Origin: Alphaproteobacteria bacterium
GTDB lineage: Bacteria; Pseudomonadota; Alphaproteobacteria; JAUHZC01
Assembly (NCBI GenBank): GCA_030425805.1
Contig: JAUHZC010000003.1
Coordinates: 701 to 64,700, forward strand
DNA length: 64,000 nt
Reading direction: 5' to 3'
Made by a program: the position numbers and the translations under genes. Shown piece after piece: positions 11,407 through 47,592 of this stretch; the stretch's first letter is position 1, and every line of letters starts with the position of its first letter. Below the pieces are notes generated by a model, which saw only the letters and a list, made by a program, of their open reading frames with translations, ran no database searches and was not told the DNA's origin.

Positions 11407-11480
11407 GGCCCGATGGCAGAGTGGTGATGCAGAGGACTGCAAATCCTTGTACGTCGGTTCGATTCCGGCTCGGGCCTCCA
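11407..11480 (+). tRNA. tRNA-Cys (anticodon GCA)
   Basis: Cloverleaf read by eye: acceptor GGCCCGA/TCGGGCC, anticodon loop CT-GCA-AA, T-arm GGTTCGATTCC, 3' CCA encoded. Confidence 0.85.
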
Positions 11481-11533: not shown

Positions 11534-13351
11534 ATGAAGAAATTATACTTTTCCTTGTTCTTAATTCTTTCTCTTTCTGCAAGCAGCTATGGAGCTGCTG
11601 AGCCAGAGGCTACTCCTGGTGCTTCATCCTCGTCTGAAGCAGCCACAGCGCAGACACATGTTGATGCTCTACTTGCAGAATTGGACACTATGCGTGCAAA
11701 ATTTCATGGATGGGCTACTTCTCCAGCAGTCACAGCCAAGATGGGAGCCCTAACCCCATTTATGTTTCGTGGATGGGAAAGAGCCCGCAGAGATGTCCGT
11801 CGCTTGACTGTCCCTATGCGTGCCCATGCTGCTTCCCTCCCTCTGCACCAAAGGAAAGAAGGAGCGACTATTCGGGGCGCTCAATCCCCCATCCTTGCGG
11901 CTCGTTTCAAGGCCTTTGCAAGGATTGCACAAGCTCATATTGATGCTATTCGTACCAGAGGAGAAGAAATTTACAATCCTGGAAGGTTTGCAGGGGTTCT
12001 TGCAGAATTTGGAGGACGTGAAACACTTTCTGTTCATGAGATCATGACAGCAGTTTTGCGTATTACAACAGCTCTTTCTCCTGTAAGTCTGGAGAATGAA
12101 GCTATGGGTAAATTTACCCCTGAAGAAAAAAGTCTTCCGTGGTCAAAATATACAGGAGATCATTTGCACGGTTTTAAATCGAGTCGGCCTGCAGACTTTT
12201 CTTCACCGCAAGAACTTGCTAGTGAATTTCTTGATAAATTGGTAGGAAGTGCTCTGGATCCGATCCCTCTTCCCCTTCCTGGACAAGGCTTTCTTGGCAC
12301 TGGAACCCTAGGAATTCTTGTGACTTCTGGTGTAGGGGCCATTCCCCTTTCTTGCGAAGTCTGTAAGGTTCATGGTCTTGAAATGGCCTCAACAACAAGT
12401 GTTGAACATGATGCCTACCACTTGTTGGCCTCTTTTCTGACAAATCCAAGACCAGCTCTCCGTCAAGCAACCATTAGATACATTGCACAACACCACCCAG
12501 GAAAAGATGTTTTAGCGCTCCCTCCAGAAACCTTTGATGAAGCTGTCCTACATGTCCTAAGGAACTATGTAGAGTATGTAAGGTTTATGATAGGTGTTTT
12601 TAGGGCCGCATTAGAAAACGACGACCGTCCACAAGCTACCCGAGATTTAAATGCATTTTTCCTTATGGTTCACGAACTTGTTGGCGTGACTCCTCGCCTT
12701 GAAAACGAAGGTGGTAGTGTGGCAATGCTTGCAGAATACCTCACTGAGATCAGGGAAACAAATATTGAAAAAGAGACGCTTGGAAACCCAGATTCGCCTC
12801 TCCTAGCTGTGCTTGAAGATCGACTTGCAGCAGAGCCAGGTTTTGGAGCCTTTGAAACAGGGGGTGCTCGTTCAGATACGACAGATCTTTCCTTCTTAGA
12901 TGAGGCTGTTCAGGCACATTTGCGCCAGAAATATGGTGCTCCTGCAGGGGCTTATACGGGAACTCGTATTCAGAAAGTTTTTAACACAGGGTCAACCTGG
13001 CAAATTGAACTCGTTGTACCATACACAGGATCTGAGCCTGTAGCTGGAGTGCTTCATGTTGTTCTTGTCACAAGAAAATATCGAGAAGGGGATCGTCGTG
13101 ATGCCATAAAAACTCTACGCCTTTTTGGTCCTGAATATGCAGCCTTCGCAGGAAATCCCTATGGCCCTCTCTCTGAAGAGTTAAATGCTTTTGCTGATCG
13201 ACTGCTAGCACTTCATTTCCCTGGTGGCGGAGGAGGTGGAGGGGCAGCAGGGCAGCTAGCGGCAGCAGCGGGAAATGAGGACGAAGCCTTAGCGCCACAG
13301 GCTGGAGGTGGAGGAGGAGCAGCGGCAGCAAGCGCAGGTGGAACTCTTTAA
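11534..13351 (+). CDS. hypothetical exported protein with Gly/Ala-rich C-terminal tail
   Basis: Sec-type signal peptide (MKKLYFSLFLILSLSASSYGAAE). No recognisable domain. The C-terminal ~45 aa are almost purely G/A ('GGGGGGGAAGQLAAAAGNEDEALAPQAGGGGGAAAASAGGTL'). Lies between tRNA-Cys and tssF. Confidence 0.55.
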   Translation: MKKLYFSLFLILSLSASSYGAAEPEATPGASSSSEAATAQTHVDALLAELDTMRAKFHGWATSPAVTAKMGALTPFMFRGWERARRDVRRLTVPMRAHAASLPLHQRKEGATIRGAQSPILAARFKAFARIAQAHIDAIRTRGEEIYNPGRFAGVLAEFGGRETLSVHEIMTAVLRITTALSPVSLENEAMGKFTPEEKSLPWSKYTGDHLHGFKSSRPADFSSPQELASEFLDKLVGSALDPIPLPLPGQGFLGTGTLGILVTSGVGAIPLSCEVCKVHGLEMASTTSVEHDAYHLLASFLTNPRPALRQATIRYIAQHHPGKDVLALPPETFDEAVLHVLRNYVEYVRFMIGVFRAALENDDRPQATRDLNAFFLMVHELVGVTPRLENEGGSVAMLAEYLTEIRETNIEKETLGNPDSPLLAVLEDRLAAEPGFGAFETGGARSDTTDLSFLDEAVQAHLRQKYGAPAGAYTGTRIQKVFNTGSTWQIELVVPYTGSEPVAGVLHVVLVTRKYREGDRRDAIKTLRLFGPEYAAFAGNPYGPLSEELNAFADRLLALHFPGGGGGGGAAGQLAAAAGNEDEALAPQAGGGGGAAAASAGGTL

Positions 13352-13415: not shown

Positions 13416-15239
13416 GTGGTTCGGGTGTCTTTAGCCCCATTGCTTTATTACTACCAACGAGAAATGAATTACCTCCGCAATGCGGGGCAGCGGTTTGCGC
13501 AACAATACCCAAAAATTGCCAAGCGCTTGGAGCTTGATCTTCAGGGATCTAGTGATCCCCATGTGGAGCGTCTCTTGGAAAGTTTTGCCTTTCTAACAGG
13601 AAAGATCCAACGGGATCTTGATGATCAATTCCCTCGTGTTGCTCAAAATCTCTTGAATGTTCTGTATCCCCACATGATGCAGTCCATGCCATCCACAACA
13701 ACACTTTGCTTCAAGCCAGATCCAGATCAAGCCCCTCCAAATGTTGGTATTGTCATTCCGCGCTATTATCCTATGTTTGCTGAGGTTGGGGAAGAGAATG
13801 AAGCATGTTGGTATCGCATTACACAAACGATTGAGCGTTACCCGTTAGAAGTGGAGAAAGTCCGTGTCTGTGGCCCGAGTGATCTTGGCTTGACTGGAAA
13901 GCGAGCTGTTTCTGAGCAGTGCCTTCATATTAAGTTTGAGGACATCTCTAGTATCCATATTTACAATCACATGCCAAAGAAAATTTGCATGCACTTGAGT
14001 GGAGATCCTCGGACAAAGCACTTGATTCTCCAGGCTCTTCTCTCCCAAGAGAATATTCAAATCCTTTGCGGAGACTTGAGTAAGGGCGAAGAAAATATGG
14101 AGGTTCTCCCCCGGGGAAGCCTGGTGCACCGTGGTTTTGAACAAGATGAATCCCTGCTCCTTCTTCCAGAAACTTATGGAGCTGGTCACCGCCTTTTAGA
14201 CGAGTTTTTCCACTATCCAGACAAATACATGTACCTTGATGTGGAAAATATTCCATATAACCTCTGTGAAGAGCAACTGGATCTTGTCTTTTCCCTACCC
14301 CGAGATTTTGAACTCAAAAACGGCCCACTCGATAAAGATACAATCATGTATGGTTGTGCCCCTGCCGTGAATCTCTTTCCTGTACTCACAGAGCCTGTTT
14401 CTCTCAAGCACACCCAAGTTGAGTATCGTCTTGTCGGAGATTATCGACGGGAAAACAGTGTTGAAATTCATTCCATCCACCGTGTGCTCGGCGCGAGTGA
14501 TGATCAGGATGAACCTTTTGAAATGGAACCCTATTTCAGCCTCCGCCACCAATCCTATAATAAAAATGGATCTTTTTGGCATGCGCGCCTCGTGCCCATG
14601 GAAATGAACAATGTTCAAGGAACGGATGTTCTGATTTCATTTGTCGATGCTGCTTTTAACCCCATCACCTCTCCCGTCGAAACAGTCTATGGGGAAGTCA
14701 TCTGCACAAATCGTGCAGCAACGCATATGATTGGTGCAAATACAACTTTTGCTAATGATGGGGATAGTGTCGAGGGTTACACTGTTACATGTATTGATAA
14801 ACCGACTTCTCAGGTTTACCCAGCCTTGGATGGACGAAATCAGTGGAAACTGATCTCATCACTTGCCCTAAGCCATCTCTCCCTCGCTGACCAAAAAGAT
14901 GGTCTAAAGCGCCTCCAGGAAACGCTCCTCCTCCATTGTCGCACGCCAGAGCAATACAGTATCGTTGATGGACTTGAGAAAATGACCATTAAAGATAGCG
15001 CCCACCGCTTTGGTAATGAGGCTTGGCGGGGCTTTGTACAAGGCATGGACATTGATATTCACATGGATGAGCAAAATTTTGCAGGCACAAGTTCTTTTCT
15101 GTTCTCTGAAATTTTGAGTTATTTCTTTGGTGAATATGCTGGTATGAACAGCTTCACCCGCCTGAATTATTATAACACCCAACAGAAAGGAGTGCGTCAC
15201 CGATGGCCAGCCCGCAGCGGAAATCGCGCCCTTCTATAG
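13416..15239 (+). CDS. tssF: type VI secretion system baseplate subunit TssF (ImpG/VasA family)
   Basis: The N-terminus 'LLYYYQREMNYLRNAGQRFAQQYPKIAKRLEL...DPHVERLLESFAFLTGKIQRDLDDQFPRVAQNLLNVLYPH' matches the highly conserved TssF N-terminal block (cf. 'LLxYYNxELxYLRExGxEFAxxxPKIAxRLxL...DPYVERLLEGFAFLTARVxLKLDxEFP'). 607 aa, which is typical TssF length. Confidence 0.8.
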   Translation: MVRVSLAPLLYYYQREMNYLRNAGQRFAQQYPKIAKRLELDLQGSSDPHVERLLESFAFLTGKIQRDLDDQFPRVAQNLLNVLYPHMMQSMPSTTTLCFKPDPDQAPPNVGIVIPRYYPMFAEVGEENEACWYRITQTIERYPLEVEKVRVCGPSDLGLTGKRAVSEQCLHIKFEDISSIHIYNHMPKKICMHLSGDPRTKHLILQALLSQENIQILCGDLSKGEENMEVLPRGSLVHRGFEQDESLLLLPETYGAGHRLLDEFFHYPDKYMYLDVENIPYNLCEEQLDLVFSLPRDFELKNGPLDKDTIMYGCAPAVNLFPVLTEPVSLKHTQVEYRLVGDYRRENSVEIHSIHRVLGASDDQDEPFEMEPYFSLRHQSYNKNGSFWHARLVPMEMNNVQGTDVLISFVDAAFNPITSPVETVYGEVICTNRAATHMIGANTTFANDGDSVEGYTVTCIDKPTSQVYPALDGRNQWKLISSLALSHLSLADQKDGLKRLQETLLLHCRTPEQYSIVDGLEKMTIKDSAHRFGNEAWRGFVQGMDIDIHMDEQNFAGTSSFLFSEILSYFFGEYAGMNSFTRLNYYNTQQKGVRHRWPARSGNRALL

Positions 15240-16240
15240 GGGAATATCTCTTTGAGGAGCCCTATAAGTTTGACTTTCACCAGGCTTTAAAAATCCTGGA
15301 TGCCCTTAATCCTAAGGGTGTTCCTGTTGGAGAAGGCGTCCTCCCTGAAAGGGAATCCGTGCAACTGAGATCTCGGGTTTTTTTGGGTAGCTCTCCGAGC
15401 CAGCTCCAACAACTCCTGCCAGGACATCGACTGGATCCTCCTAAACTTGAAGTGAATTTTATGGGAATAGCAGGAGAATCTGGCCCCCTACCTGCTGTCT
15501 ATGCTGAAATGCTTCTTGAGCGCAAAGCTAAAAAAGATCACGCAATGGACGATTTTCTCCAGATCTTTAACCATCGGCTTCTCTCAATGGTTGCAAGAAA
15601 TGGGCGTAAGCACTGGCCAGCTCTTCATAATGGGCGTATTGAAGACAATCCTTTTGCTGATACCTTGCTTTCTTTGTCAGGGATGTTTTTCCTCAAAGAT
15701 AGCCCTCTGAAAACTATTGAAAATCGGAGTTTCCTTCCCTACACAGGGATGCTTTGGGATCAACGATGTTCAGCACGTTCCCTCCAGGACATGATAAGAA
15801 ATTTCCTCCAAGTCCCCGCAGCCGTAAAATCTTTCATTGGCAAATGGCATCATATTCCAGGAAATGCCCAAACACGCATCCACTCTGTGTATGAAAAAGG
15901 ACAAAATCACCGCCTTGGAGAAACAGCTACACTAGGAGATCGATACTGGGATCAAGCCGCTGAAATTCTTGTAGAGCTTGACCTTGAGAAGTTTGAGCGA
16001 TGGGAAAGTCTCTTACCGGGCCAAATTGCTTGGTCGCGTGTGATGACACTGATTCGCTCAGCTGTTCCCTCCCAAATCCAGGTCCAAGTTAAGTTGACTC
16101 TCTCTCAGAAACAATTCAAACCCACCCGACTTGATCAGCAATCTCCCCTCGGCTGGGGAAGTTTTCTTGGCTCCCCAAAAAAAACAAAAGAAAGCTTCGG
16201 AATCAGTGGGGAGTTTTGTCAGAATCTAGAATTATACTAA
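15203..16240 (+). CDS. tssG: type VI secretion system baseplate subunit TssG (ImpH/VasB family)
   Basis: N-terminal 'EEPYKFDFHQALKILD' matches the TssG hallmark 'EPxRFxFFQAVRLLE'. 345 aa. Overlaps the tssF stop, the usual tssF-tssG coupling. Confidence 0.75.
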   Translation: MASPQRKSRPSIGEYLFEEPYKFDFHQALKILDALNPKGVPVGEGVLPERESVQLRSRVFLGSSPSQLQQLLPGHRLDPPKLEVNFMGIAGESGPLPAVYAEMLLERKAKKDHAMDDFLQIFNHRLLSMVARNGRKHWPALHNGRIEDNPFADTLLSLSGMFFLKDSPLKTIENRSFLPYTGMLWDQRCSARSLQDMIRNFLQVPAAVKSFIGKWHHIPGNAQTRIHSVYEKGQNHRLGETATLGDRYWDQAAEILVELDLEKFERWESLLPGQIAWSRVMTLIRSAVPSQIQVQVKLTLSQKQFKPTRLDQQSPLGWGSFLGSPKKTKESFGISGEFCQNLELY

Positions 16241-23234: not shown

Positions 23235-23693
23235 ATGGTGGATGAGTTAAATTACGACCTCATGGTACAAGAAGCGCTCCGCCGGATTGTGCGGGATGCC
23301 TTGACTGTTGTCCAAAATCATGGACTTGCAGACAATCATCATTTCTACATTACCTTCCGTACCAACCGAAGTGATGTGAGCCTCCCCCCCTACTTACGGG
23401 AAAAACACCCTGAAGATATTACTATTGTTCTTCAGCATCAATTTTATGACCTCGCTGTTTATGAGAACCACTTTGAGGTCACGCTTAGTTTTAATGACAA
23501 ACATGAGCGCTTGAAAGTTCCCTACGGAGCGATTACAAGCTTTATGGATCCTTCCGTAAAATTTGGTCTTCAGTTTGTGCCACAAGCTGAAAACTATGCT
23601 ATGGATCCAAAAAACCCCACCCCCGAAGGGGCAGGGCCTACGTCTAGTAAGGTCGTTGACCTGGCTGCGTTTCGCCAACGCCGGGGATCTTAA
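23235..23693 (+). CDS. sspB: ClpXP adaptor SspB-like protein
   Basis: Resembles alphaproteobacterial SspB ('YDLMVQEALRRIVRDAL...HHFYITFRT...'). Ends with a flexible tail preceding 'AAFRQRRGS', reminiscent of a ClpX-binding peptide. Confidence 0.65.
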   Translation: MVDELNYDLMVQEALRRIVRDALTVVQNHGLADNHHFYITFRTNRSDVSLPPYLREKHPEDITIVLQHQFYDLAVYENHFEVTLSFNDKHERLKVPYGAITSFMDPSVKFGLQFVPQAENYAMDPKNPTPEGAGPTSSKVVDLAAFRQRRGS

Positions 23694-24598
23694 CCGTCCG
23701 TTGGAGCAGCAGCAGCGGCAGCAGCGCCTAAGGTGCCCGAAGCATCAACGTCAATAGCTTCTGCGGCGGCAACTCCTTCATCGTCATCGTCTCCACCACC
23801 TTCTTCAACAGCCATAACTTCGGCAGCAGCTGCCACAAGAATTGTGAGTGCCGCTGAAGCCTTAGCTGTAGCTGCTTCAATATCCTCAGCTGTCCAACCA
23901 TCGTGAGGTGTTGGGTCAGCCAATGCACCCCCTAGATCATCTAGTTCATCTTTTAGAGCTGTAATTTTTCCGAATTTTACTTTTGCAACTTCTACAAGAG
24001 CTGTAAGAGTCTGCATGAGCTTCCCAAACTTTTCTAGCTTCCCTTCTGGGGGACCTGCAGCTTTTACTGTATTCACTATCTTCCCAACAGTATTAAGGAA
24101 AAGCTCCAAACTTGCACCATTTTTGCCACGTAAGTCCTCCAACTGTTCCATTACTGTCTCTGCAGTCTCCGCTGCTGATGTTGCTTTTTTTATGCCATCA
24201 TCAATACCGTCAAGAACTCCATTCAAGTCCCTCAATGCTGCCGCTTGTTCTTCTGTTAATAAACCAAGTTCCCCAAGCATTCTTTCTACAGATGTGACGA
24301 GCCCTCTCACTCTCACAAAGCCTCTTTGTGCTGCAGTCGCTGCATGACGTGCAGCCTCAACAGCAGAATCAAGATTATCCCAGACAACAACTGCAGCAGC
24401 CTGTGCCCCTCCACAGCACCTAGCAATCCACCCTAAACATCCTGTTGGGGCAGGTAGCTCCCTCGTAAGATGTTCCTCCTTCGGGATTTCCTTCATTGCC
24501 TCTCGAAGCGGAGCTGAGTCTGAAACATCTGCCCCATAACCAGGCATTGAATAAACGCTCCCAAGTAATAGACAAACAAAAGTTGAAACCTTTTTCAT
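23690..24598 (-). CDS. hypothetical exported alpha-helical protein with Cys-Cys motif and acidic Gly/Ala-rich tail
   Basis: Signal peptide (MKKVSTFVCLLLGSVYSMPGYGA), 'GCLGWIARCCGGAQAAAVVV', then long predicted helices. The C-terminus is 'EEGGGDDDDEGVAAAEAIDVDASGTLGAAAAAAAPTDG'. Confidence 0.5.
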   Translation of the reverse strand: MKKVSTFVCLLLGSVYSMPGYGADVSDSAPLREAMKEIPKEEHLTRELPAPTGCLGWIARCCGGAQAAAVVVWDNLDSAVEAARHAATAAQRGFVRVRGLVTSVERMLGELGLLTEEQAAALRDLNGVLDGIDDGIKKATSAAETAETVMEQLEDLRGKNGASLELFLNTVGKIVNTVKAAGPPEGKLEKFGKLMQTLTALVEVAKVKFGKITALKDELDDLGGALADPTPHDGWTAEDIEAATAKASAALTILVAAAAEVMAVEEGGGDDDDEGVAAAEAIDVDASGTLGAAAAAAAPTDG

Positions 24599-32693: not shown

Positions 32694-33047
32694 ATGTATG
32701 ATACCACAAATGTCTTTTGGAAAATTCTCGAAGGAGACATTCCTTGCACCCCAATCTACGAAACAGATCATATTTTTGTCTTTCCAGACATTGCACCCAA
32801 ACGAAAGATCCATCTTCTCTGCATCCCCAAAGGGAAATACACTGATTTCTCTGACTTCACTAAGAATGCCACAAAAGACGAGATCCAAGGATTTTGGAAA
32901 GGTGTTCAGGACGTTATTCGCTCTCACAACCTTGAAGACCAGGGATATCGTATTATTTCAAATATGGGATCTCAAGGAGGGCAGGAAGTGCCTCATTTTC
33001 ACATTCATATTCTTGCAGGAGAACCTGTGGGGCCTTTGGTAGCCTAA
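32694..33047 (+). CDS. HIT-family (histidine triad) hydrolase
   Basis: 'QEVPHFHIHILAG' HxHxHxx motif. Confidence 0.8.
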   Translation: MYDTTNVFWKILEGDIPCTPIYETDHIFVFPDIAPKRKIHLLCIPKGKYTDFSDFTKNATKDEIQGFWKGVQDVIRSHNLEDQGYRIISNMGSQGGQEVPHFHIHILAGEPVGPLVA

Positions 33048-34432
33048 GTGCTTGCTGATGCCCCTGCTGAAGCATCCGTTTCCGAGCAAAAATCTGCAAT
33101 TGTTTCTTTGATCCAGGTGTTGACTTCTGGTCGACCGAGATAGCTTGCATAAGTTTCACGATGATACACATTGCTGCCGTGCTCAGGCCTTATAATTGAA
33201 GGACCCATAGAGTAGCGCACATAGCATAAGATGCCAGCTAATTTCCCTCCAATAAACAGAGGAGACCCAGAACATCCTGAAAAAGGGCTTCCTGTGATAC
33301 GCAATTCATCTGAACGATCAGTTGTATGGATATAGTCTAGATCCTCAGCCTCATTTGCATTTACAAGGACCTCTGTACCATCTGAAATTGCTTTATAATG
33401 AGGGGAAACCTGATGAAGAAAAACTTGTAGACTGGACGTACTGTCTCTGAACAGCTCTTGAACTTTTCCCCCAACATAAGAGAGATATTTACCAATACCC
33501 GCAGGTCTTTCTTCTGAATCCACAACCTCAGCAACGGAGCATTCTTCACTCCACCCCGCAACACAAATTAAGGCTAAATCAATGGGAATATGTGAAACTT
33601 CCCAGGCATGTACATGAGAAGGACAATCTGAGTCAAAAAGGGCTACTTTTGAAACTGGGTACCCTTCCCTTCCTTGGTAAAGGGAGAAAGAAGATTCACG
33701 GCCTTGGATTGCCTTCGCTACATGTGCACAGGTTAAAAATACTCCTGGTGCGATCAGTGTTGCAATACCCCGGCTACTCCCCTTCATAACTCCAATGTAA
33801 AAGATTTTTGAACGATCAGGATCTGTACTCCCCGCAATCAAGGACCGGACCCTTGCATGTTCTGTAGGAAAGTAAATTCCCGAAATACTCCGTCGTATTG
33901 TTAGCAATAGATCTGTTTCTGTCCCTCCAGAAGCCCCTTCAGCCTCCATGAGCTCTTCAAGTTTCTCTCTTAAAGCCACATCTTTAGCTTCACCATATGA
34001 GGCCTCCTCAAAAAAATCTGTAGAGCCTGTCTCTCTTGTTACTAACCCTTCTGACACTAATTCTGCTATGGCTGCTTCAGAAAGATTCTCCCCTGTTGCA
34101 ACGTCAACAAAATCAGCAGCCTGATAATATTCAGCAGCTAGAGCATATTGTTTTTGAGCTTGTGCAGAACGACCCAGATAATATAAAGCTTCTGAACGGA
34201 TCTCAACACGCGCAGAGAGTAGTTTTCTTAAACAAAACTCTCCTGCTTTATAAGCACCTTTTTCAATAAGGCATTTCCCATGATTAAGTTGGTTTGGAAG
34301 CCGTATTAATTCTTCAGCAATTTCTTTTGTGCTCCCTAAAAAAACAGGGTTAGAGCGATACGAAACCTCCAGTGCTTGAGCACCCCATACCAATACAGGC
34401 AAAAAAGCCCACAAAAAACACCACCGTGCCAT
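33044..34432 (-). CDS. exported trypsin-like (S1) serine peptidase with N-terminal TPR/Sel1-like region
   Basis: Signal peptide; the N-terminal half is helical repeat ('ALYYLGRSAQAQKQYALAAEYYQAA'); C-terminal 'GVFLTCAHVA' (His) ... 'GCSGSPLFIGG' (Ser) catalytic motifs. Confidence 0.6.
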   Translation of the reverse strand: MARWCFLWAFLPVLVWGAQALEVSYRSNPVFLGSTKEIAEELIRLPNQLNHGKCLIEKGAYKAGEFCLRKLLSARVEIRSEALYYLGRSAQAQKQYALAAEYYQAADFVDVATGENLSEAAIAELVSEGLVTRETGSTDFFEEASYGEAKDVALREKLEELMEAEGASGGTETDLLLTIRRSISGIYFPTEHARVRSLIAGSTDPDRSKIFYIGVMKGSSRGIATLIAPGVFLTCAHVAKAIQGRESSFSLYQGREGYPVSKVALFDSDCPSHVHAWEVSHIPIDLALICVAGWSEECSVAEVVDSEERPAGIGKYLSYVGGKVQELFRDSTSSLQVFLHQVSPHYKAISDGTEVLVNANEAEDLDYIHTTDRSDELRITGSPFSGCSGSPLFIGGKLAGILCYVRYSMGPSIIRPEHGSNVYHRETYASYLGRPEVNTWIKETIADFCSETDASAGASAST

Positions 34433-42134: not shown

Positions 42135-44825
42135 TTAGCGATGCTTTTCAAAAACCATTACGATTTCTGTTCCCTGGTCAGGTTGAGACCGGACTCTCAT
42201 TTCCCCCTGAGAGAGATCAATGATTTCTTTACAGTATGAGAGTCCAATTCCCATCCCTGAGGATTTTGTTGTAAACATTGGGTCAAATATATTCTCAAGA
42301 ACGTCTGGCTGCATCCCAGGACCATTGTCCTGTATTGCGACAACAACCTTATCCTCATCAACTTCAATTTCGATCTCAATTCGAAGCTGAGAGCCCCTGC
42401 GTCCTTGCCCACAAAAAGCCTCATAAGCGTTTTTGAACAGGTTATGCATGACCTGAATCATAGCTGATTTATGGGTAGAAATCAGAGCATCTTGTATCAG
42501 GCCCTTTAGGATAAAGATCTCCCCCTTTTCTTCAGGCGGGAGAGGATAAATATCGATAGCCTCTCGAAGAATATCCCCGATATTTTCTTTGTGAACAAAA
42601 AGTTCTTTGTTTGTTCCCTTCAACTGCCTGATTGAGAGCTGTTGAATCTGGGAAATGCGTGTCACTGTATTTCCAATTTCCTCGATATTTTTCTGCAACC
42701 CTTCAACATCTTCCTTGCTGCCCTTAATTTCAACCTTCTTTGCAATATTTTTAAGAGAAAATACACGCATTCCTAGGGTTGATAGAGGCGTAGAAAGCTC
42801 ATGAGAAATATAATTTGCTTGGTATTTTTCAAGCTGTTTTGCTGAAAACTCATCCCCCTCTTTTTTTCGAGAGAAGACCATTCCCATGAGGGATGAAAAA
42901 ATAATACTGAAAACAAAAAGTAAAATATCATTAGATGCGAAATCGAAACAGCTTCCTCCGCATAAAAGAATATACAAACCAAAGGCAAGTAGGCTCCCAC
43001 CTGCAAAAAGAATCATAAAAACACGCCAAGAGACGAGGAGAGCCATGAGAAAAAGCCCCAAAGTTAAATTTGTGAGCCCGAATGTATCTAGGTTTCCTAG
43101 AAGACCCTGCACCATCAAAGTGAAAGGAAGCGTTATCATGACAGTGAAATGCCAATAGGCTGTGAAATACCGCAAAAGACTCTTTGGCCAATATCCTTTT
43201 AGCAAGAGGAGAACACAGAGAAAGCCAGAAAATAGCTTGAGAAAAATCATCTCACCAGAAACCAGAGTTGATTTTTGGATCCACATGAAATTCGGCGCAA
43301 TGTAGACACACAGCACAAAAACGGAAAAGCCTGTAGCTGGAAGCCATTCTAACCTAGCTGGATTGAGAATTTCAGAAAAAGAAGGCTTCTTTTTGCTCGA
43401 CTCTCTTTGGATTCTTATGATTTTTTTCTGTGATTCAGGTGCAAACCTAGATTTTGGCTCGAAAAAAAAAAATCGCGTGAAGAAAACTACTGCGTTTCCT
43501 AGCATTCCAACAATAAAACCTGGAACATATGTTAAATCCACAAGATTCAAAACATCCCAAATGATAAAAGAAACAATCCCCCCGAGTACTGCATAAAGAA
43601 AGGTTTTCTCTGAAACTTTGATTCCAAAAATTGCAGCATAAAGCGGAACAACAGCAACTGGACTCCAAAAGCTCATGAAATAGACCATGATACTCAGGAT
43701 ATCCTTGAAAATGAGCGCAATAGCCATAGCAAAAAGAGCTGCAGAAGGAGTAAAAATCCAAATCCAGTTCCGCATACGCTTTTCATCTGATCTTGTTTTT
43801 TCTTTTAATCCAAGAACATCCCCCAAGAAAGTGGAAGTACTTAAGTTCAGAGCAGAGTCTGCAGATGACATAATAACAGCCATGAGGCCTGAGGCCGCAA
43901 TCCCCTTTACACCTATAGGCAAAAACTCTGAAATAAGATGAGGAAAGGCGAGCTTGGAATCAATATTTGGAAAAATAATATAGGCTGCAATCCCAATTAA
44001 CCCAATAAAGAAAAAGAAAGGAAACTCCAGAATTGCCGTCAAAATCATTGATTTAGACATTTGCTTAGGTCCCCGTGAAATGAAAAACCTGTGCAAAATT
44101 AGAGGGTTTAAAATCGGTAAGAATTGAGCAAAGAAATACGTTAGAAGAAGCCCTGTATCTGCTTTTGTATGTACAAAAGAATAGTGCGTTTCAGGGATTT
44201 GAGAAAAGAATTTTTGATATCCCCCAAAGTAGTCTAGCAAAAACATGCAAACTGAAGGAACGCTCACAACGATGAAGCAAAATTGCAAAACGTCCGTGAA
44301 CACAACAGCACGAACCCCCCCAAACATTGTATAAAAAAGAACGATTCCCACACTGAAAAGAACACCGAGATTAAAGGGAATATTTAAAAAATATTGAAAA
44401 ACAAATCCCATTGCTGAAACTTGTAATGCAAATGTTCCAAGGGTCTTAATAAGCGCACTTAATCCAATAATTTTCTTAGCATACTGACCATAAGCCTTTG
44501 CCCCCATATCCCCAGGAGTCATACATCCATGGAATCTTCCCATCTTGGGAATGACAACAACACCGAGAAATAAATCAGCAAATGCCTGCAGTGCTACAAG
44601 AATAAGGATAGGGTAACCGTACTCAAAAACACGGGTAGAAAGCCCTAGACTTGATCCGCCCCCCAACCAAGTAGCTGCCGTTGTACAAACAAGGACGGGA
44701 AGTGAAAAATTGCGATCTGCGACAGAGAAATCTTTTAAGGACTCAACTTTCTTGCCTCTTACAATAGCTACCCACAAGGTGCCGAGAAGAAATAATCCGA
44801 TAATACCTAAGTCAATATTGTGCAT
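42135..44825 (-). CDS. hybrid sensor: sodium:solute symporter (SSF) domain fused to histidine kinase (HisKA + HATPase_c)
   Basis: ~12-13 TM helices of SSF type in the N-terminal ~600 aa. H-box 'ISHELSTPLSTL'; N/G boxes 'HNLFKNAYEAF', 'QDNGPGM', 'GMGIGLSYC'. Confidence 0.8.
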   Translation of the reverse strand: MHNIDLGIIGLFLLGTLWVAIVRGKKVESLKDFSVADRNFSLPVLVCTTAATWLGGGSSLGLSTRVFEYGYPILILVALQAFADLFLGVVVIPKMGRFHGCMTPGDMGAKAYGQYAKKIIGLSALIKTLGTFALQVSAMGFVFQYFLNIPFNLGVLFSVGIVLFYTMFGGVRAVVFTDVLQFCFIVVSVPSVCMFLLDYFGGYQKFFSQIPETHYSFVHTKADTGLLLTYFFAQFLPILNPLILHRFFISRGPKQMSKSMILTAILEFPFFFFIGLIGIAAYIIFPNIDSKLAFPHLISEFLPIGVKGIAASGLMAVIMSSADSALNLSTSTFLGDVLGLKEKTRSDEKRMRNWIWIFTPSAALFAMAIALIFKDILSIMVYFMSFWSPVAVVPLYAAIFGIKVSEKTFLYAVLGGIVSFIIWDVLNLVDLTYVPGFIVGMLGNAVVFFTRFFFFEPKSRFAPESQKKIIRIQRESSKKKPSFSEILNPARLEWLPATGFSVFVLCVYIAPNFMWIQKSTLVSGEMIFLKLFSGFLCVLLLLKGYWPKSLLRYFTAYWHFTVMITLPFTLMVQGLLGNLDTFGLTNLTLGLFLMALLVSWRVFMILFAGGSLLAFGLYILLCGGSCFDFASNDILLFVFSIIFSSLMGMVFSRKKEGDEFSAKQLEKYQANYISHELSTPLSTLGMRVFSLKNIAKKVEIKGSKEDVEGLQKNIEEIGNTVTRISQIQQLSIRQLKGTNKELFVHKENIGDILREAIDIYPLPPEEKGEIFILKGLIQDALISTHKSAMIQVMHNLFKNAYEAFCGQGRRGSQLRIEIEIEVDEDKVVVAIQDNGPGMQPDVLENIFDPMFTTKSSGMGIGLSYCKEIIDLSQGEMRVRSQPDQGTEIVMVFEKHR

Positions 44826-45021: not shown

Positions 45022-47592
45022 ATGTCATATATCGACCTTTCAATTGTGGCTCTTTATTTGATAGGGACATTTATTGTTGGCCTATACTATGGAAAAAGAG
45101 AAGGCAAGTCATTACAACAGTTTGCGACAGGGAATAAAGACTTCTCCGTTCCCCTCATTGCAATCACTATCTTTGCAACCCTAACGGGTGGAAATAACGT
45201 TCTTGGAAATTCTGAGAAAGGATTTCGATACGGCATCATCTTTTATCTGATTGTCTTTGGAGATCCCGTCTACCGGTTGATTATGGCAAAATATTTTGCA
45301 CCACGATTTAGTCGTTTTCGTGACTGTATCTCTGCAGGTGACATCTTAGATAAAAGCTTCGGAAGGTTGGGGCGATGCATTGCTGGGGTTGCTGCTTTCA
45401 TGAAGTGCTCAGGAAGTGTAGCAGCTCAAATTGCAGGGCTCAGCATTGTACTTCAATACATGTCAGGAATTGATTACTTTACAGGTCTTGTGATCGTCAC
45501 ATTCCTCACAATTGCCTACTCTGCTTTTGGGGGAATCACCTCTGTTGTCTTCACAGACGTCATTCAGTTTGTAGCTTTGATTATTGCTGTTCCGCTTGTC
45601 TCAGCTCTCGCTGTTCATAAAGCGGGAGGCGCAAACGTTGTTTTTGAAACAACATTCATCACAAAGCCAGATTTCTCTTTTGAAGATGGAAGTTTTATTT
45701 TCACAATCTTCATGATCTACTGCATTCCAGAACTAAACCCTGTTTTGCTACACCGTCTTCTCATCTCCAGGAATCTTCGTTTCCTCTCTGCTTCTCTCCG
45801 GGCAGCAGCAGCCTTAGCGGTTCCTTTTGGCCTCGTTATGGCTTTGTTAGTAGGATCAGCATATATTCTTGATCCCACCATTGAGCCTAAGAGTGTTTAT
45901 CCGTACCTGATTGATACAATTCTGCCTGTAGGCTTGAAAGGAATTGCTATTGCAGGACTATTTGCAATTCTAATGTCAACAATTGACTCCTTTTTAAACA
46001 CAGCCTCTGTTGCCTTTGCCCAGGATATCTTGGAAGGATTTTTTCCCAAAAAGTTTAATGATCAAACCAAGAAGAAATATGCGCAGTCTACAACTGTAAT
46101 CATTGGTGCGATTGGTTTTTACATAGCAACTCAGTACAACAGCATTGTTTCAATTTTTCTTTTCTCAATGGAATTGTGGGTTCCACTTATGGTTGCTCCT
46201 CTCTATAGCGTAATCTTCAGATATAATGCGACTCAAAAAGATCTAATTTTTTCCTGTCTTGGGGGTGTTGTTGCACTTTACTCTGTAAAATTCAGCCCTC
46301 TTGGAAAAATCCCAGGATTAACTGTTTTTGCTGCATACTTAGGTAGCTTTTTAATGATGTTCAGGAGGGCACTGACATTTAAAAACCTAAAGGAGCTGCT
46401 GACACGACCTGCACGCCCAAGATCAATTGCTCTTGCAGAGAAAAAACGATACATCGTTCCCCAAAATATAGATGCCTTCTGCATTTTGATTGTTTTCTTC
46501 TATGCATTTTCTCCCTTCCTAGGAATCTACGAAAATAAAAATCTACTTTGGCTAGGAATGCATGTCTTGGGAGTTTCTTCTGCTCTTGCTCTCTTCTTTG
46601 GCCGACGTAATAACTTCAGCTTTAAACCTCTTATTCAGCCTTTTGTTATTATGACAGGAGCTCTCATACCTTTCTTAATGGTCCATGTTAGTGGAAAATT
46701 GGAAACACTCTTCTTTATCATGCCAATCTTCCTCTATTTTTCCTCCATGATTGCCTTTAGTAAGTTTTTTCAAGGAATTGCTTTTAGTTTCACGCTTTCT
46801 AAGTTTGTAACTTATTACTATATCGGTCTTCCTGGACTTGGGGCTTTTTATGAAGTTGCTTTTCTCTCAACTGTTCTCATAAGTGGATTTTTTATCTCTC
46901 GTTTAACATTCCACAACCCAAGAGAACGTTATCAAGGTGCTGCTATTGCTATTTCAGAAATTGCCCATGAAGTCAGAACACCCCTCCAATCAATTGCTGT
47001 TGATTTTGGAATGTTAATTGAAGAACTTGGTATTGGTAAAAAAGAGTCTCCAAATCCACTCATTGGAAAAATATATCACAAGCTTAATACCGTATTCTCT
47101 TCTCTGGAACTTATTCTTCAAACCTTCCGAAAAGACGATAAAAATGATCAATATGAAATTATTAATCTGAGTAATCTTTTGCAAAATATCATTGAACAGT
47201 ACTCATTTCCCAAAGATGTCCACGTTACAATTGATGCTCAGTGCCAGAATCTTCACGTCAAAGGTGATGAAGCCGCGCTCCGTGGAGTCTTTTTAAACCT
47301 TATCAAAAATAGTGTTGAGGCTCAGTATGGGCAGGATAAAAAAGAGGTTAATCTCACTTTGAAACAATCTGCAAACTATGCAACAATCTTTGTTGAAGAT
47401 CGAGGTCCTGGTGTAGATCTCAAAGACTCAGAAGTCATTTTTGAGCCTTTCTACACCACAAAGAAATCTGGCACGGGGGTTGGTTTGAGCTACTGCTTAA
47501 AAATTATTCAAAATCAATCAGGTTCTATGTTCTATGAACCACGTCCTGGAGGAGGCGCTCGATTTGTCGTCCAGTTACCTGTGGGGTCATAA
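45022..47592 (+). CDS. hybrid sensor: sodium:solute symporter (SSF) domain fused to histidine kinase
   Basis: SSF-type polytopic N-terminus. H-box 'ISEIAHEVRTPLQSI'; 'LNLIKNSVEA', 'EDRGPGVD', 'GTGVGLSYC'. Divergent from the first SSF-HK across an AT-rich 196-bp region. Confidence 0.8.
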   Translation: MSYIDLSIVALYLIGTFIVGLYYGKREGKSLQQFATGNKDFSVPLIAITIFATLTGGNNVLGNSEKGFRYGIIFYLIVFGDPVYRLIMAKYFAPRFSRFRDCISAGDILDKSFGRLGRCIAGVAAFMKCSGSVAAQIAGLSIVLQYMSGIDYFTGLVIVTFLTIAYSAFGGITSVVFTDVIQFVALIIAVPLVSALAVHKAGGANVVFETTFITKPDFSFEDGSFIFTIFMIYCIPELNPVLLHRLLISRNLRFLSASLRAAAALAVPFGLVMALLVGSAYILDPTIEPKSVYPYLIDTILPVGLKGIAIAGLFAILMSTIDSFLNTASVAFAQDILEGFFPKKFNDQTKKKYAQSTTVIIGAIGFYIATQYNSIVSIFLFSMELWVPLMVAPLYSVIFRYNATQKDLIFSCLGGVVALYSVKFSPLGKIPGLTVFAAYLGSFLMMFRRALTFKNLKELLTRPARPRSIALAEKKRYIVPQNIDAFCILIVFFYAFSPFLGIYENKNLLWLGMHVLGVSSALALFFGRRNNFSFKPLIQPFVIMTGALIPFLMVHVSGKLETLFFIMPIFLYFSSMIAFSKFFQGIAFSFTLSKFVTYYYIGLPGLGAFYEVAFLSTVLISGFFISRLTFHNPRERYQGAAIAISEIAHEVRTPLQSIAVDFGMLIEELGIGKKESPNPLIGKIYHKLNTVFSSLELILQTFRKDDKNDQYEIINLSNLLQNIIEQYSFPKDVHVTIDAQCQNLHVKGDEAALRGVFLNLIKNSVEAQYGQDKKEVNLTLKQSANYATIFVEDRGPGVDLKDSEVIFEPFYTTKKSGTGVGLSYCLKIIQNQSGSMFYEPRPGGGARFVVQLPVGS

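Follow-up and report, generated by a model that had tools for sequence, protein, structure and literature searches.

Holospora obtusa has two periplasmic proteins with signal peptides, the 63-kDa PRP1 and one of 89 kDa, which it releases to its host (PMC9866348; PMC11909080). Both build up in the periplasm and are then exposed to, or secreted towards, the host with no recognized dedicated signal (PMC9866348; PMC11909080). Described here is a protein of similar character, 605 residues in length, that is encoded in a 64,000-nucleotide stretch of contig JAUHZC010000003.1 (hereafter the window). Like the H. obtusa proteins, it is a lineage-specific orphan with a putative signal peptide and a size in the range of ∼60-90 kDa, its predicted mature form having a mass of 62.4 kDa. 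No sequence homology between the H. obtusa proteins and the window family was detected in the exhaustive search described below, however, and whereas PRP1 carries a D5_N DNA-binding domain, the window protein has no Pfam domain. Its localization is a prediction, as is the assignment of its source organism to the Holosporales.

A type VI secretion system (T6SS) is nearly universal in the Holosporineae (PMC11909080). It is described there as departing from the standard type, several parts of its envelope complex having escaped identification (PMC11909080). In Paracaedibacter-like (Holosporales-type) symbionts, the genes tssG and tssF form a conserved stand-alone pair (PMC8163844). Like the genes for T6SS cargo and accessory proteins, that of the window protein adjoins the core genes tssF and tssG on the same strand, in an organism whose T6SS modules are scattered. 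Unlike them, its product carries a Sec signal and lacks effector or adaptor domains, and the gene is neither beside vgrG, hcp, or PAAR nor co-conserved with the system.

The C-terminus of the protein, a tail of 43 residues, invites comparisons of a different kind. The mycobacterial PE_PGRS proteins and the Gly-Ala repeat of EBNA1 are dominated by Gly and Ala, GC-rich at the DNA level, and presumably disordered, as is the tail, and this likeness is taken as a lead only. In contrast to PE_PGRS, the tail is short, is confined to the extreme C-terminus, and shows no GGAGGN periodicity, and there is neither a PE domain (Pfam) nor a type VII secretion context. With respect to EBNA1, an encounter of the tail with a eukaryotic proteasome is conjectural. 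The tail also shares its position with known C-terminal sorting signals, and its small and acidic residues recall the signals of type I secretion systems (T1SS) and the Gly-Gly motif of GlyGly-CTERM. Proteins exported by T1SS, however, carry no Sec signal. Unlike the known sorting signals, the tail has no GGxGxD nonapeptides, no β-sandwich C-terminal domain (CTD), and no hydrophobic helix with a basic cluster.

An earlier note on this DNA had described an exported protein of no recognizable fold, with a Gly/Ala tail that was proposed to be both a flexible or secretion-related appendage and a slippage-prone repeat, and it had suggested from the position of the gene that the protein might be a T6SS-associated or cargo protein. 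As presented below, the window protein is a member of no described family, and of the classes considered only the generic one of Sec/SPase I substrates accommodates it. We lean towards the view that it is private to its lineage and exported via Sec, that it acts in the envelope or faces the host, possibly in a metal-dependent manner, and that both its ends are disordered.

Overall architecture of the protein

The positions of the features discussed in this report are collected in Table 1. The N-terminus of the window protein, MKKLYFSLFLILSLSASSYG↓AAEPE, displays the n-, h-, and c-regions of a Sec-type signal peptide, namely MKK, LYFSLFLILSLSA, and SSYG↓AA. It combines a basic n-region, a hydrophobic region of 10-15 residues, small residues at positions -3 (Ser) and -1 (Gly), and no Cys and hence no lipobox, as expected for a substrate of signal peptidase I (SPase I). 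Here and throughout, signal peptides were judged by inspection and hydropathy rather than with a trained predictor. The signal peptides of the two paralogs described below end in GFG↓AV and SWG↓AQ, such that an [YFW]G↓A cleavage site is common to all three, and the signal peptide that the earlier note had called clean is borne out. Export of the window protein is very probable, and it would take place via Sec through the inner membrane. Cleavage after Gly 20 would leave a mature protein of 585 residues with a predicted pI of 5.8. Hydropathy reveals no transmembrane segment beyond the signal peptide. Because of the analogy with the orphan signal-peptide proteins of Holospora, which are periplasmic and released to the host, the mature protein may reside in the periplasm or envelope or be released to the host.

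The tail extends from residue 563 to residue 605 and reads PGGGGGGGAAGQLAAAAGNEDEALAPQAGGGGGAAAASAGGTL. It consists of G7AAGQLAAAAG, the spacer NEDEALAPQA, and G5AAAASAGGTL, and thus 30 of its 43 residues are Gly (16) or Ala (14). A six-frame scan of all 64 kb showed that 20-residue windows with at least 15 Gly/Ala are confined to this ORF (open reading frame), and because they are unique the tail is far beyond chance. Its existence, as claimed earlier, is not in doubt.

Table 1. Location of the window gene, its parts, its neighbors, and other proteins with comparable tails. Positions refer to the window unless marked L003, a second locus of the same organism.
Feature	Position	Strand	Evidence or remark
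tRNA-Cys (GCA), 53 bp upstream of the ORF	11407..11480	+	ARAGORN, Rfam
ORF of the window protein, 605 aa, ATG start, double stop TAA TAA	11534..13351	+	window ORF
Sec-type signal peptide MKKLYFSLFLILSLSASSYG, predicted SPase I site SYG↓AA, no lipobox	11534..11593	+	sequence inspection and hydropathy
Ala/Ser/Thr/Glu/Pro-rich low-complexity mature N-terminus AAEPEATPGASSSSEAATAQT, counterpart in paralogs	11594..11656	+	sequence inspection and paralog comparison
Most conserved family core	12371..12676	+	three-paralog alignments and BLASTP
LFGP (residues 530-533), invariant, close to where the folded part ends	13121..13132	+	paralog alignments
C-terminal tail, residues 563-605, two Gly-run/Ala-run halves around NEDEALAPQA	13220..13348	+	70% Gly/Ala, 66.7% GC
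tssF, downstream neighbor	13416..15239	+	Pfam E 3e-155
tssG, overlaps tssF by 37 nt	15203..16240	+	Pfam E 7e-71
Orphan, 302 aa, signal peptide MKKVSTFVCLLLGSVYSMPGYG↓ADVSD	23690-24598	-	acidic and poly-Ala end ...GGGDDDDEGVAAAEAIDVDASGTLGAAAAAAAPTDG / ...EEGGGDDDDEGVAAAEAIDVDASGTLGAAAAAAAPTDG
Signal-peptide protein, 462 aa, ...VLVWG↓AQALE	33044-34432	-	ends ...TDASAGASAST
Orphan with comparable tail, 186 aa	L003 14975-15535		tail census
Signal-peptide leucine-rich repeat (LRR) protein, acidic tail ...DESGEGGDEDDDPYGIYDID	L003 20240-21445		tail census

A private family of three paralogs

When 1.84 billion representative proteins were searched exhaustively with phmmer, the window protein itself and two others were the sole matches, the latter being P0002 (544 residues, E 5e-21) and P0003 (542 residues, E 1e-5). 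Word-based searches with the window protein, the family profile, and the paralog P0010 yielded only self-clusters; this type of profile search is lossy here, given that even P0002 was not returned. Scans of the GTDB genomes with the family alignment and with TssF, and a scan of the JGI metagenomes, revealed no relatives, and a family hidden Markov model run against all ORFs of at least 60 residues in the window and in two further loci of the organism, L003 and L004, uncovered no fourth paralog. All three paralogs trace to sample ERR3420974 in the Logan assemblies and to one NCBI assembly, in which P0002 and P0003 lie on a contig of 437,694 bp and the window genes on one of 256,936 bp. As far as public data show, the family is restricted to one organism.

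The full-length members are P0013 (the window protein), P0010 (548 residues), and P0012 (694 residues). Their pairwise identities, taken from alignments and BLASTP, are 26-30%, and all three are encoded by intact ORFs of 544-694 residues with about 55-60 invariant positions. The duplications that gave rise to them are ancient. In each, the mature N-terminus is of low complexity and rich in Ala, Ser, and Gly (AAEPEATPGASSSSEAATAQ; AVTGGSASSASS; AQAAASAAAMPDPAAAASASAGASAGAD), and a weakly conserved helical region connects it to the core. The invariant residues of the core, in window numbering, are Val 279-His 280-Gly 281, His 292-Asp 293, His 296, Thr 303-Asn 304, Arg 315, Tyr 345, Arg 357, and His 380-Glu 381, which can be summarized as VHG-x10-11-HDxxH-x6-TN ... 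HE. Beyond the core follow Pro 435-x-Phe 437-Gly 438, Trp 489, and Leu 530-Phe-Gly-Pro 533, the last of these motifs positioned after a predicted three-stranded β-unit. The His, Asp, and Glu residues among them form a cluster that may bind metal or act in catalysis.

The last helix of all three paralogs ends in "FP" and is followed by a tail: DEAAAAAGEAE in P0010, RGEAGASTSGRAAAASASAALA in P0012, and the 43 residues of the window protein. The lengths are accordingly ∼10, 22, and 43 residues, and in P0012 the tail is preceded by a long insertion with a run of nine Glu residues. Both distant paralogs thus have an Ala/Gly/acidic tail behind the conserved "FP", and carrying such an extension, variable as it is in length and sequence, is no accident but characteristic of the family. 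With regard to the appendage of the earlier note, what stands is a genuine low-complexity, presumably flexible extension that is common to the family; a secretion-related role finds no counterpart among known C-terminal sorting signals.

The gene for the third paralog (L004, 5909-7993) is intact in the Logan assembly, whereas the NCBI assembly splits it into P0011 (170 residues) and P0003 (542 residues). The split falls at about positions 6370-6376 of L004, where the protein sequences imply the loss of one G in ...GCAATGGCTGCA.... Either the frameshift is a genuine polymorphism or a mistake arose during assembly or polishing.

No fold could be assigned to the family, in agreement with the earlier note. 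Even at permissive E-values, nothing above noise emerged when all three paralogs were searched against Pfam, NCBIfam, PHROGs, and PADLOC, and the Pfam and NCBIfam matches at E ≤ 10 included nothing relevant. For the window protein, a sequence search of the PDB gave no match, and a profile search of the PDB at E ≤ 10 gave 0 matches. The AlphaFold2 models, built from the three-sequence alignment, showed a predicted local distance difference test (pLDDT) score of 37.8 for the full-length protein and of 47.2, with a predicted template modeling (pTM) score of 0.38, for the core (residues 225-562). In these low-confidence models the protein is mostly helical, with a three-stranded β-unit near residues 478-512. 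A Foldseek comparison of the core model with the PDB produced no match at E ≤ 0.001, the best having an E-value of 0.24 and a TM-score of at most 0.22. DNA polymerases β and λ were the top matches, which are meaningless at the confidence of the core model. Because no fold was obtained, the idea of a metal site derives solely from the invariant His, Asp, and Glu residues of the three-sequence alignment.

Similar tails on other exported proteins

A census of C-termini was taken over ∼94 kb of the organism (the window, L003, and L004), which hold 87 non-overlapping ORFs. Eight of these encode proteins whose last 20 residues are at least 60% Ala, Gly, Ser, Asp, or Glu; all eight carry an N-terminal signal peptide, and no ORF without a signal peptide among the 87 has such a tail. 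The tails of the signal-peptide proteins score higher (Mann-Whitney p 0.0008, with a crude predictor, a small sample, and paralogs that are not independent). The search for the same tail elsewhere in the organism, as proposed in the earlier note, thus revealed a similar composition on unrelated signal-peptide proteins. According to BLASTP, these proteins share neither a tail nor a signal-peptide module, and the likeness is one of composition without a common motif.

Four such proteins are listed in Table 1. The 302-residue orphan is unrelated in sequence to the window protein and yet ends in the same style; its sole Pfam match, phiKZ_IP, is below threshold (E 6e-4). The 462-residue protein shows a weak, sub-threshold match to Trypsin_2 (E 0.0025, residues 225-400), and a divergent serine protease that is exported is one possibility. 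In L003, the LRR protein and several more orphan proteins with signal peptides are located near the vgrG gene described below.

One explanation of this pattern is that the tail serves, not as a passive spacer, but as a functional tag on part of the Sec secretome. It would be recognized in a second step, such as transfer from the periplasm to the surface or the host, loading into outer membrane vesicles, or controlled proteolysis or processing in the periplasm. Such a tag would account for the presence of same-style tails after the folded part in three paralogs of such low identity, for the comparable ends of the unrelated proteins in Table 1, and for the confinement of such tails to signal-peptide proteins in the census. 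Nonetheless, the tails differ in length (10-43 residues) and in their final residues, no common motif was found, and no NCBIfam or Pfam model of a C-terminal sorting signal was matched (GlyGly-CTERM/rhombosortase, PEP-CTERM, LPXTG, T9SS CTD, RTX/T1SS). Neither the sequence nor the hydropathy of the window tail reveals the hydrophobic helix or the basic cluster of a sortase-type signal. In addition, secreted, fast-evolving proteins are generally rich in low-complexity ends, and three members of this small sample are paralogs of one another. We regard a functional tag as unlikely and favor the view that exported proteins which evolve fast generically acquire ends of low complexity. An SsrA-like degron was also considered, given that the spacer AAAAGNEDEALA resembles the Escherichia coli tag AANDENYALAA; it was set aside, for the spacer is internal rather than terminal, the paralogs lack it, and the window protein is taken to be exported.

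Relationship to the type VI secretion genes

As the earlier note had stated, the window gene lies directly upstream of tssF, which is followed by tssG. The overlap between tssF and tssG suggests translational coupling, and housekeeping genes for Tim44-like, MltA, and Smr proteins come after tssG. The start of tssF is ambiguous: a GTG at 13416 gives a protein of 607 residues, and the Logan call, equivalent to window position 13464, one of 591 residues. The gap between the window gene and tssF is accordingly 64-112 bp, and no terminator-like site was found within it on the + strand.

On this basis the window protein might be associated with the T6SS, either as a cargo effector or as a lineage-specific accessory or envelope part (replacing, for example, the outer-membrane lipoprotein TssJ, which is apparently missing) that is co-expressed with the baseplate genes tssF and tssG. 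The common strand, the short gap, and the non-standard T6SS of the Holosporineae, with its partly unassigned envelope parts, all speak for such a role, as does the location of P0010 6.6 kb from a vgrG and a MORN_2 gene. However, T6SS cargo is normally loaded onto Hcp or VgrG in the cytoplasm, which does not go together with a cleavable Sec signal, and in the absence of a lipobox the protein is not TssJ-like. With respect to the usual marks of T6SS cargo, linkage to vgrG, hcp, PAAR, or adaptor genes, a delivery or toxin domain, and the lack of a Sec signal, none was observed. Indeed, the window contains no vgrG, hcp, PAAR, or adaptor gene (DUF4123, DUF1795, DUF2169), and Pfam and NCBIfam show no MIX, FIX, PAAR, RHS, known Tox, or adaptor domain in the paralogs. 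There is likewise no co-conservation with the T6SS core genes, for the family is absent from all other T6SS-bearing organisms represented among the 1.84 billion proteins, GTDB, and JGI.

The paralogs, moreover, are found in unrelated contexts. The gene for P0010 sits between an efflux operon of the resistance-nodulation-division (RND) type and pntAB, with the RND operon on the opposite strand separating it from vgrG, and that for P0012 comes after rplT. In view of these contexts, the Sec signal, and the occurrence of tssG-tssF as an isolated pair in related symbionts, the window gene is best seen as an insertion beside the T6SS module and not as part of it. That it adjoins tssF-tssG is a matter of position, perhaps with a common transcript, and not of function. 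A T6SS role is thus improbable, and the suggestion of the earlier note reduces to the adjacency of tssF. The notion that the gene provides a substitute for TssE was rejected, since the product contains no gp25-like domain and is a protein of 605 residues with a signal peptide.

Upstream of the window gene is a tRNA-Cys gene, and a genomic island integrated at this site was considered as well. No att-like repeat of the 3' end of the tRNA occurs elsewhere in the window, and the GC content by codon position is native; the island was therefore dismissed. The Logan assembly breaks inside the tRNA gene, contig 622492 starting at window position 11427 and the neighboring contig 763340 carrying the NUDIX/grpE/hrcA side. 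This break could reflect a second copy of the tRNA elsewhere or heterogeneity at the junction.

Coding integrity and the DNA of the tail

It might be argued that the ORF is a decaying, non-functional orphan and its tail a neutral product of read-through or drift. Homologues are lacking outside one organism, neither a strong Shine-Dalgarno sequence nor a sigma-70-like promoter was detected upstream of the ORF, and in the NCBI assembly a frameshift divides one of the paralogs. Against this stand three intact ORFs that have kept their signal peptides, their architecture, and their invariant positions at 26-30% identity, the native codon use and GC content at third codon positions (GC3), and the intact state of the frameshifted paralog in the Logan assembly of the same sample. 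Decay is very unlikely.

By its sequence, the tail is not a DNA-slippage tract. Its DNA is richer in GC (66.7%) than the window (43.9%). In the G7 run the codons are GGT GGC GGA GGA GGT GGA GGG, whereas GCA and GCG alternate in use within the Ala runs. No perfect triplet tract exceeds (GGA)3 (or two copies of a 6-nt unit), a length that is unexceptional, for 25 perfect tracts with 3-4 triplet units are present in the window. Tandem Repeats Finder reports for the tail a single weak 8-bp array with a score of 36. Contingency loci built on simple sequence repeats typically need a long, perfect tandem tract, at least five to six units in the case of triplets. The GC fractions at codon positions 1, 2, and 3 of the ORF are 0.64, 0.49, and 0.30, respectively, the last of which is like that of the neighboring housekeeping genes, and third positions follow the A/T bias of the genome (GGA, GCA). 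Given a GC excess in positions 1 and 2 and a native GC3, the composition of the tail is driven at the level of the amino acids and not of the DNA. Between its two halves an imperfect direct repeat can be recognized (29 nt, 83% identity, 81 nt apart); this fits a duplication in the past and not an active microsatellite. The window, which is NCBI-derived, and the Logan contig carrying the locus, which is present in two runs, are identical over 11,925 nt; both come from sample ERR3420974 and are not independent strains. That slippage alters the length of the tail in frame, generating heterogeneity in the population, is scarcely credible in light of the mixed codons and the short tracts, despite the local GC richness and triplet build, the trace of a past duplication, and the different lengths of the paralog tails.

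Source organism

The window and L003 offer some indications as to the organism. In the window, a lone tssF-tssG pair flanked by housekeeping genes matches the scattered T6SS layout of Paracaedibacter-like symbionts. Positions 1-4644 of L003 encode a VgrG of 1123 residues and then a MORN_2 (YwqK-type) protein of 426 residues, an arrangement that corresponds to the [ywqK-vgrG]-type module described for the same symbionts. Neighboring genes of alphaproteobacterial character include hrcA-grpE and those for Tim44-like, MltA, and SspB proteins and two ATP synthase b subunits. On account of the scattered T6SS layout, the alphaproteobacterial synteny, and the many MORN, LRR, and orphan signal-peptide proteins, we infer that the organism is a Holosporales-type intracellular symbiont.

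Two divergent genes in the window, at 42135-44825 (-) and 45022-47592 (+), encode proteins of 896 and 856 residues in which a sodium:solute symporter (SSF) domain is fused to a histidine-kinase ATPase domain. They constitute a paralogous pair of CbrA-like transporter-sensor hybrids.

Proposed function

In the scheme that we find somewhat more convincing than not, the window protein would be exported by Sec across the inner membrane and cleaved at SYG↓AA to yield a mature protein of 62 kDa. This would begin with a disordered, Ala/Ser-rich N-terminus, followed by the poorly conserved helical region and the conserved core. Within the core, the invariant VHG-x10-HDxxH-x6-TN ... HE residues would form a candidate metal or catalytic site and might confer a metal-dependent activity. 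After the core would come the small β-unit, LFGP, the final helix ending in "FP", and the disordered Gly/Ala/acidic tail. The protein would most likely act in the envelope or periplasm, or be released towards the host. The tail would most likely serve as a flexible spacer or a solubility-type extension that is maintained at the level of the amino acids, its composition being constrained and its sequence not, and the disordered Ala/Ser/Gly segments at both ends could be viewed as bookends that act as flexible spacers or solubility elements.

Several observations weigh against this scheme. Export is deduced from inspected sequence features and not from predictor-grade or experimental evidence, no fold was obtained (pLDDT of 38 and 47), and the placement of the organism with the Holosporales comes from its genes rather than from a direct taxonomic determination. 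The short, terminator-free gap leaves an operon link to the T6SS baseplate genes possible, and P0010 lies within 6.6 kb of the vgrG-MORN_2 pair. Finally, the retention of Ala-rich tails across paralogs of ∼29% identity and on unrelated signal-peptide proteins could mean a specific signal instead of a passive spacer.

A bolder proposal would be that in this uncultured, Holosporales-like symbiont the Ala/Gly/acidic C-terminus is a shared second-step tag for the export, processing, or stability of host-destined Sec proteins and that the VHG...HDxxH...TN...HE residues mark a new metal-dependent enzyme fold that is delivered by this route. We consider this combination a long shot. In a still more exotic variant, the Gly-Ala tail would shield the released protein from the host proteasome, as the EBNA1 repeat does.

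Implications

The finding is that of an uncharacterized orphan protein; it reveals neither a new T6SS component nor a hypermutable locus. The family is a new one of a familiar kind, namely lineage-restricted exported proteins of symbionts with low-complexity ends. Its paralogs are private to the organism, share a cluster of invariant His, Asp, and Glu residues, and have presumably disordered ends, which makes the family a concrete candidate for a host-interaction factor. It bears on the question of how Holosporales-type symbionts move Sec-exported proteins past the periplasm and on the roles of their orphan signal-peptide proteins.

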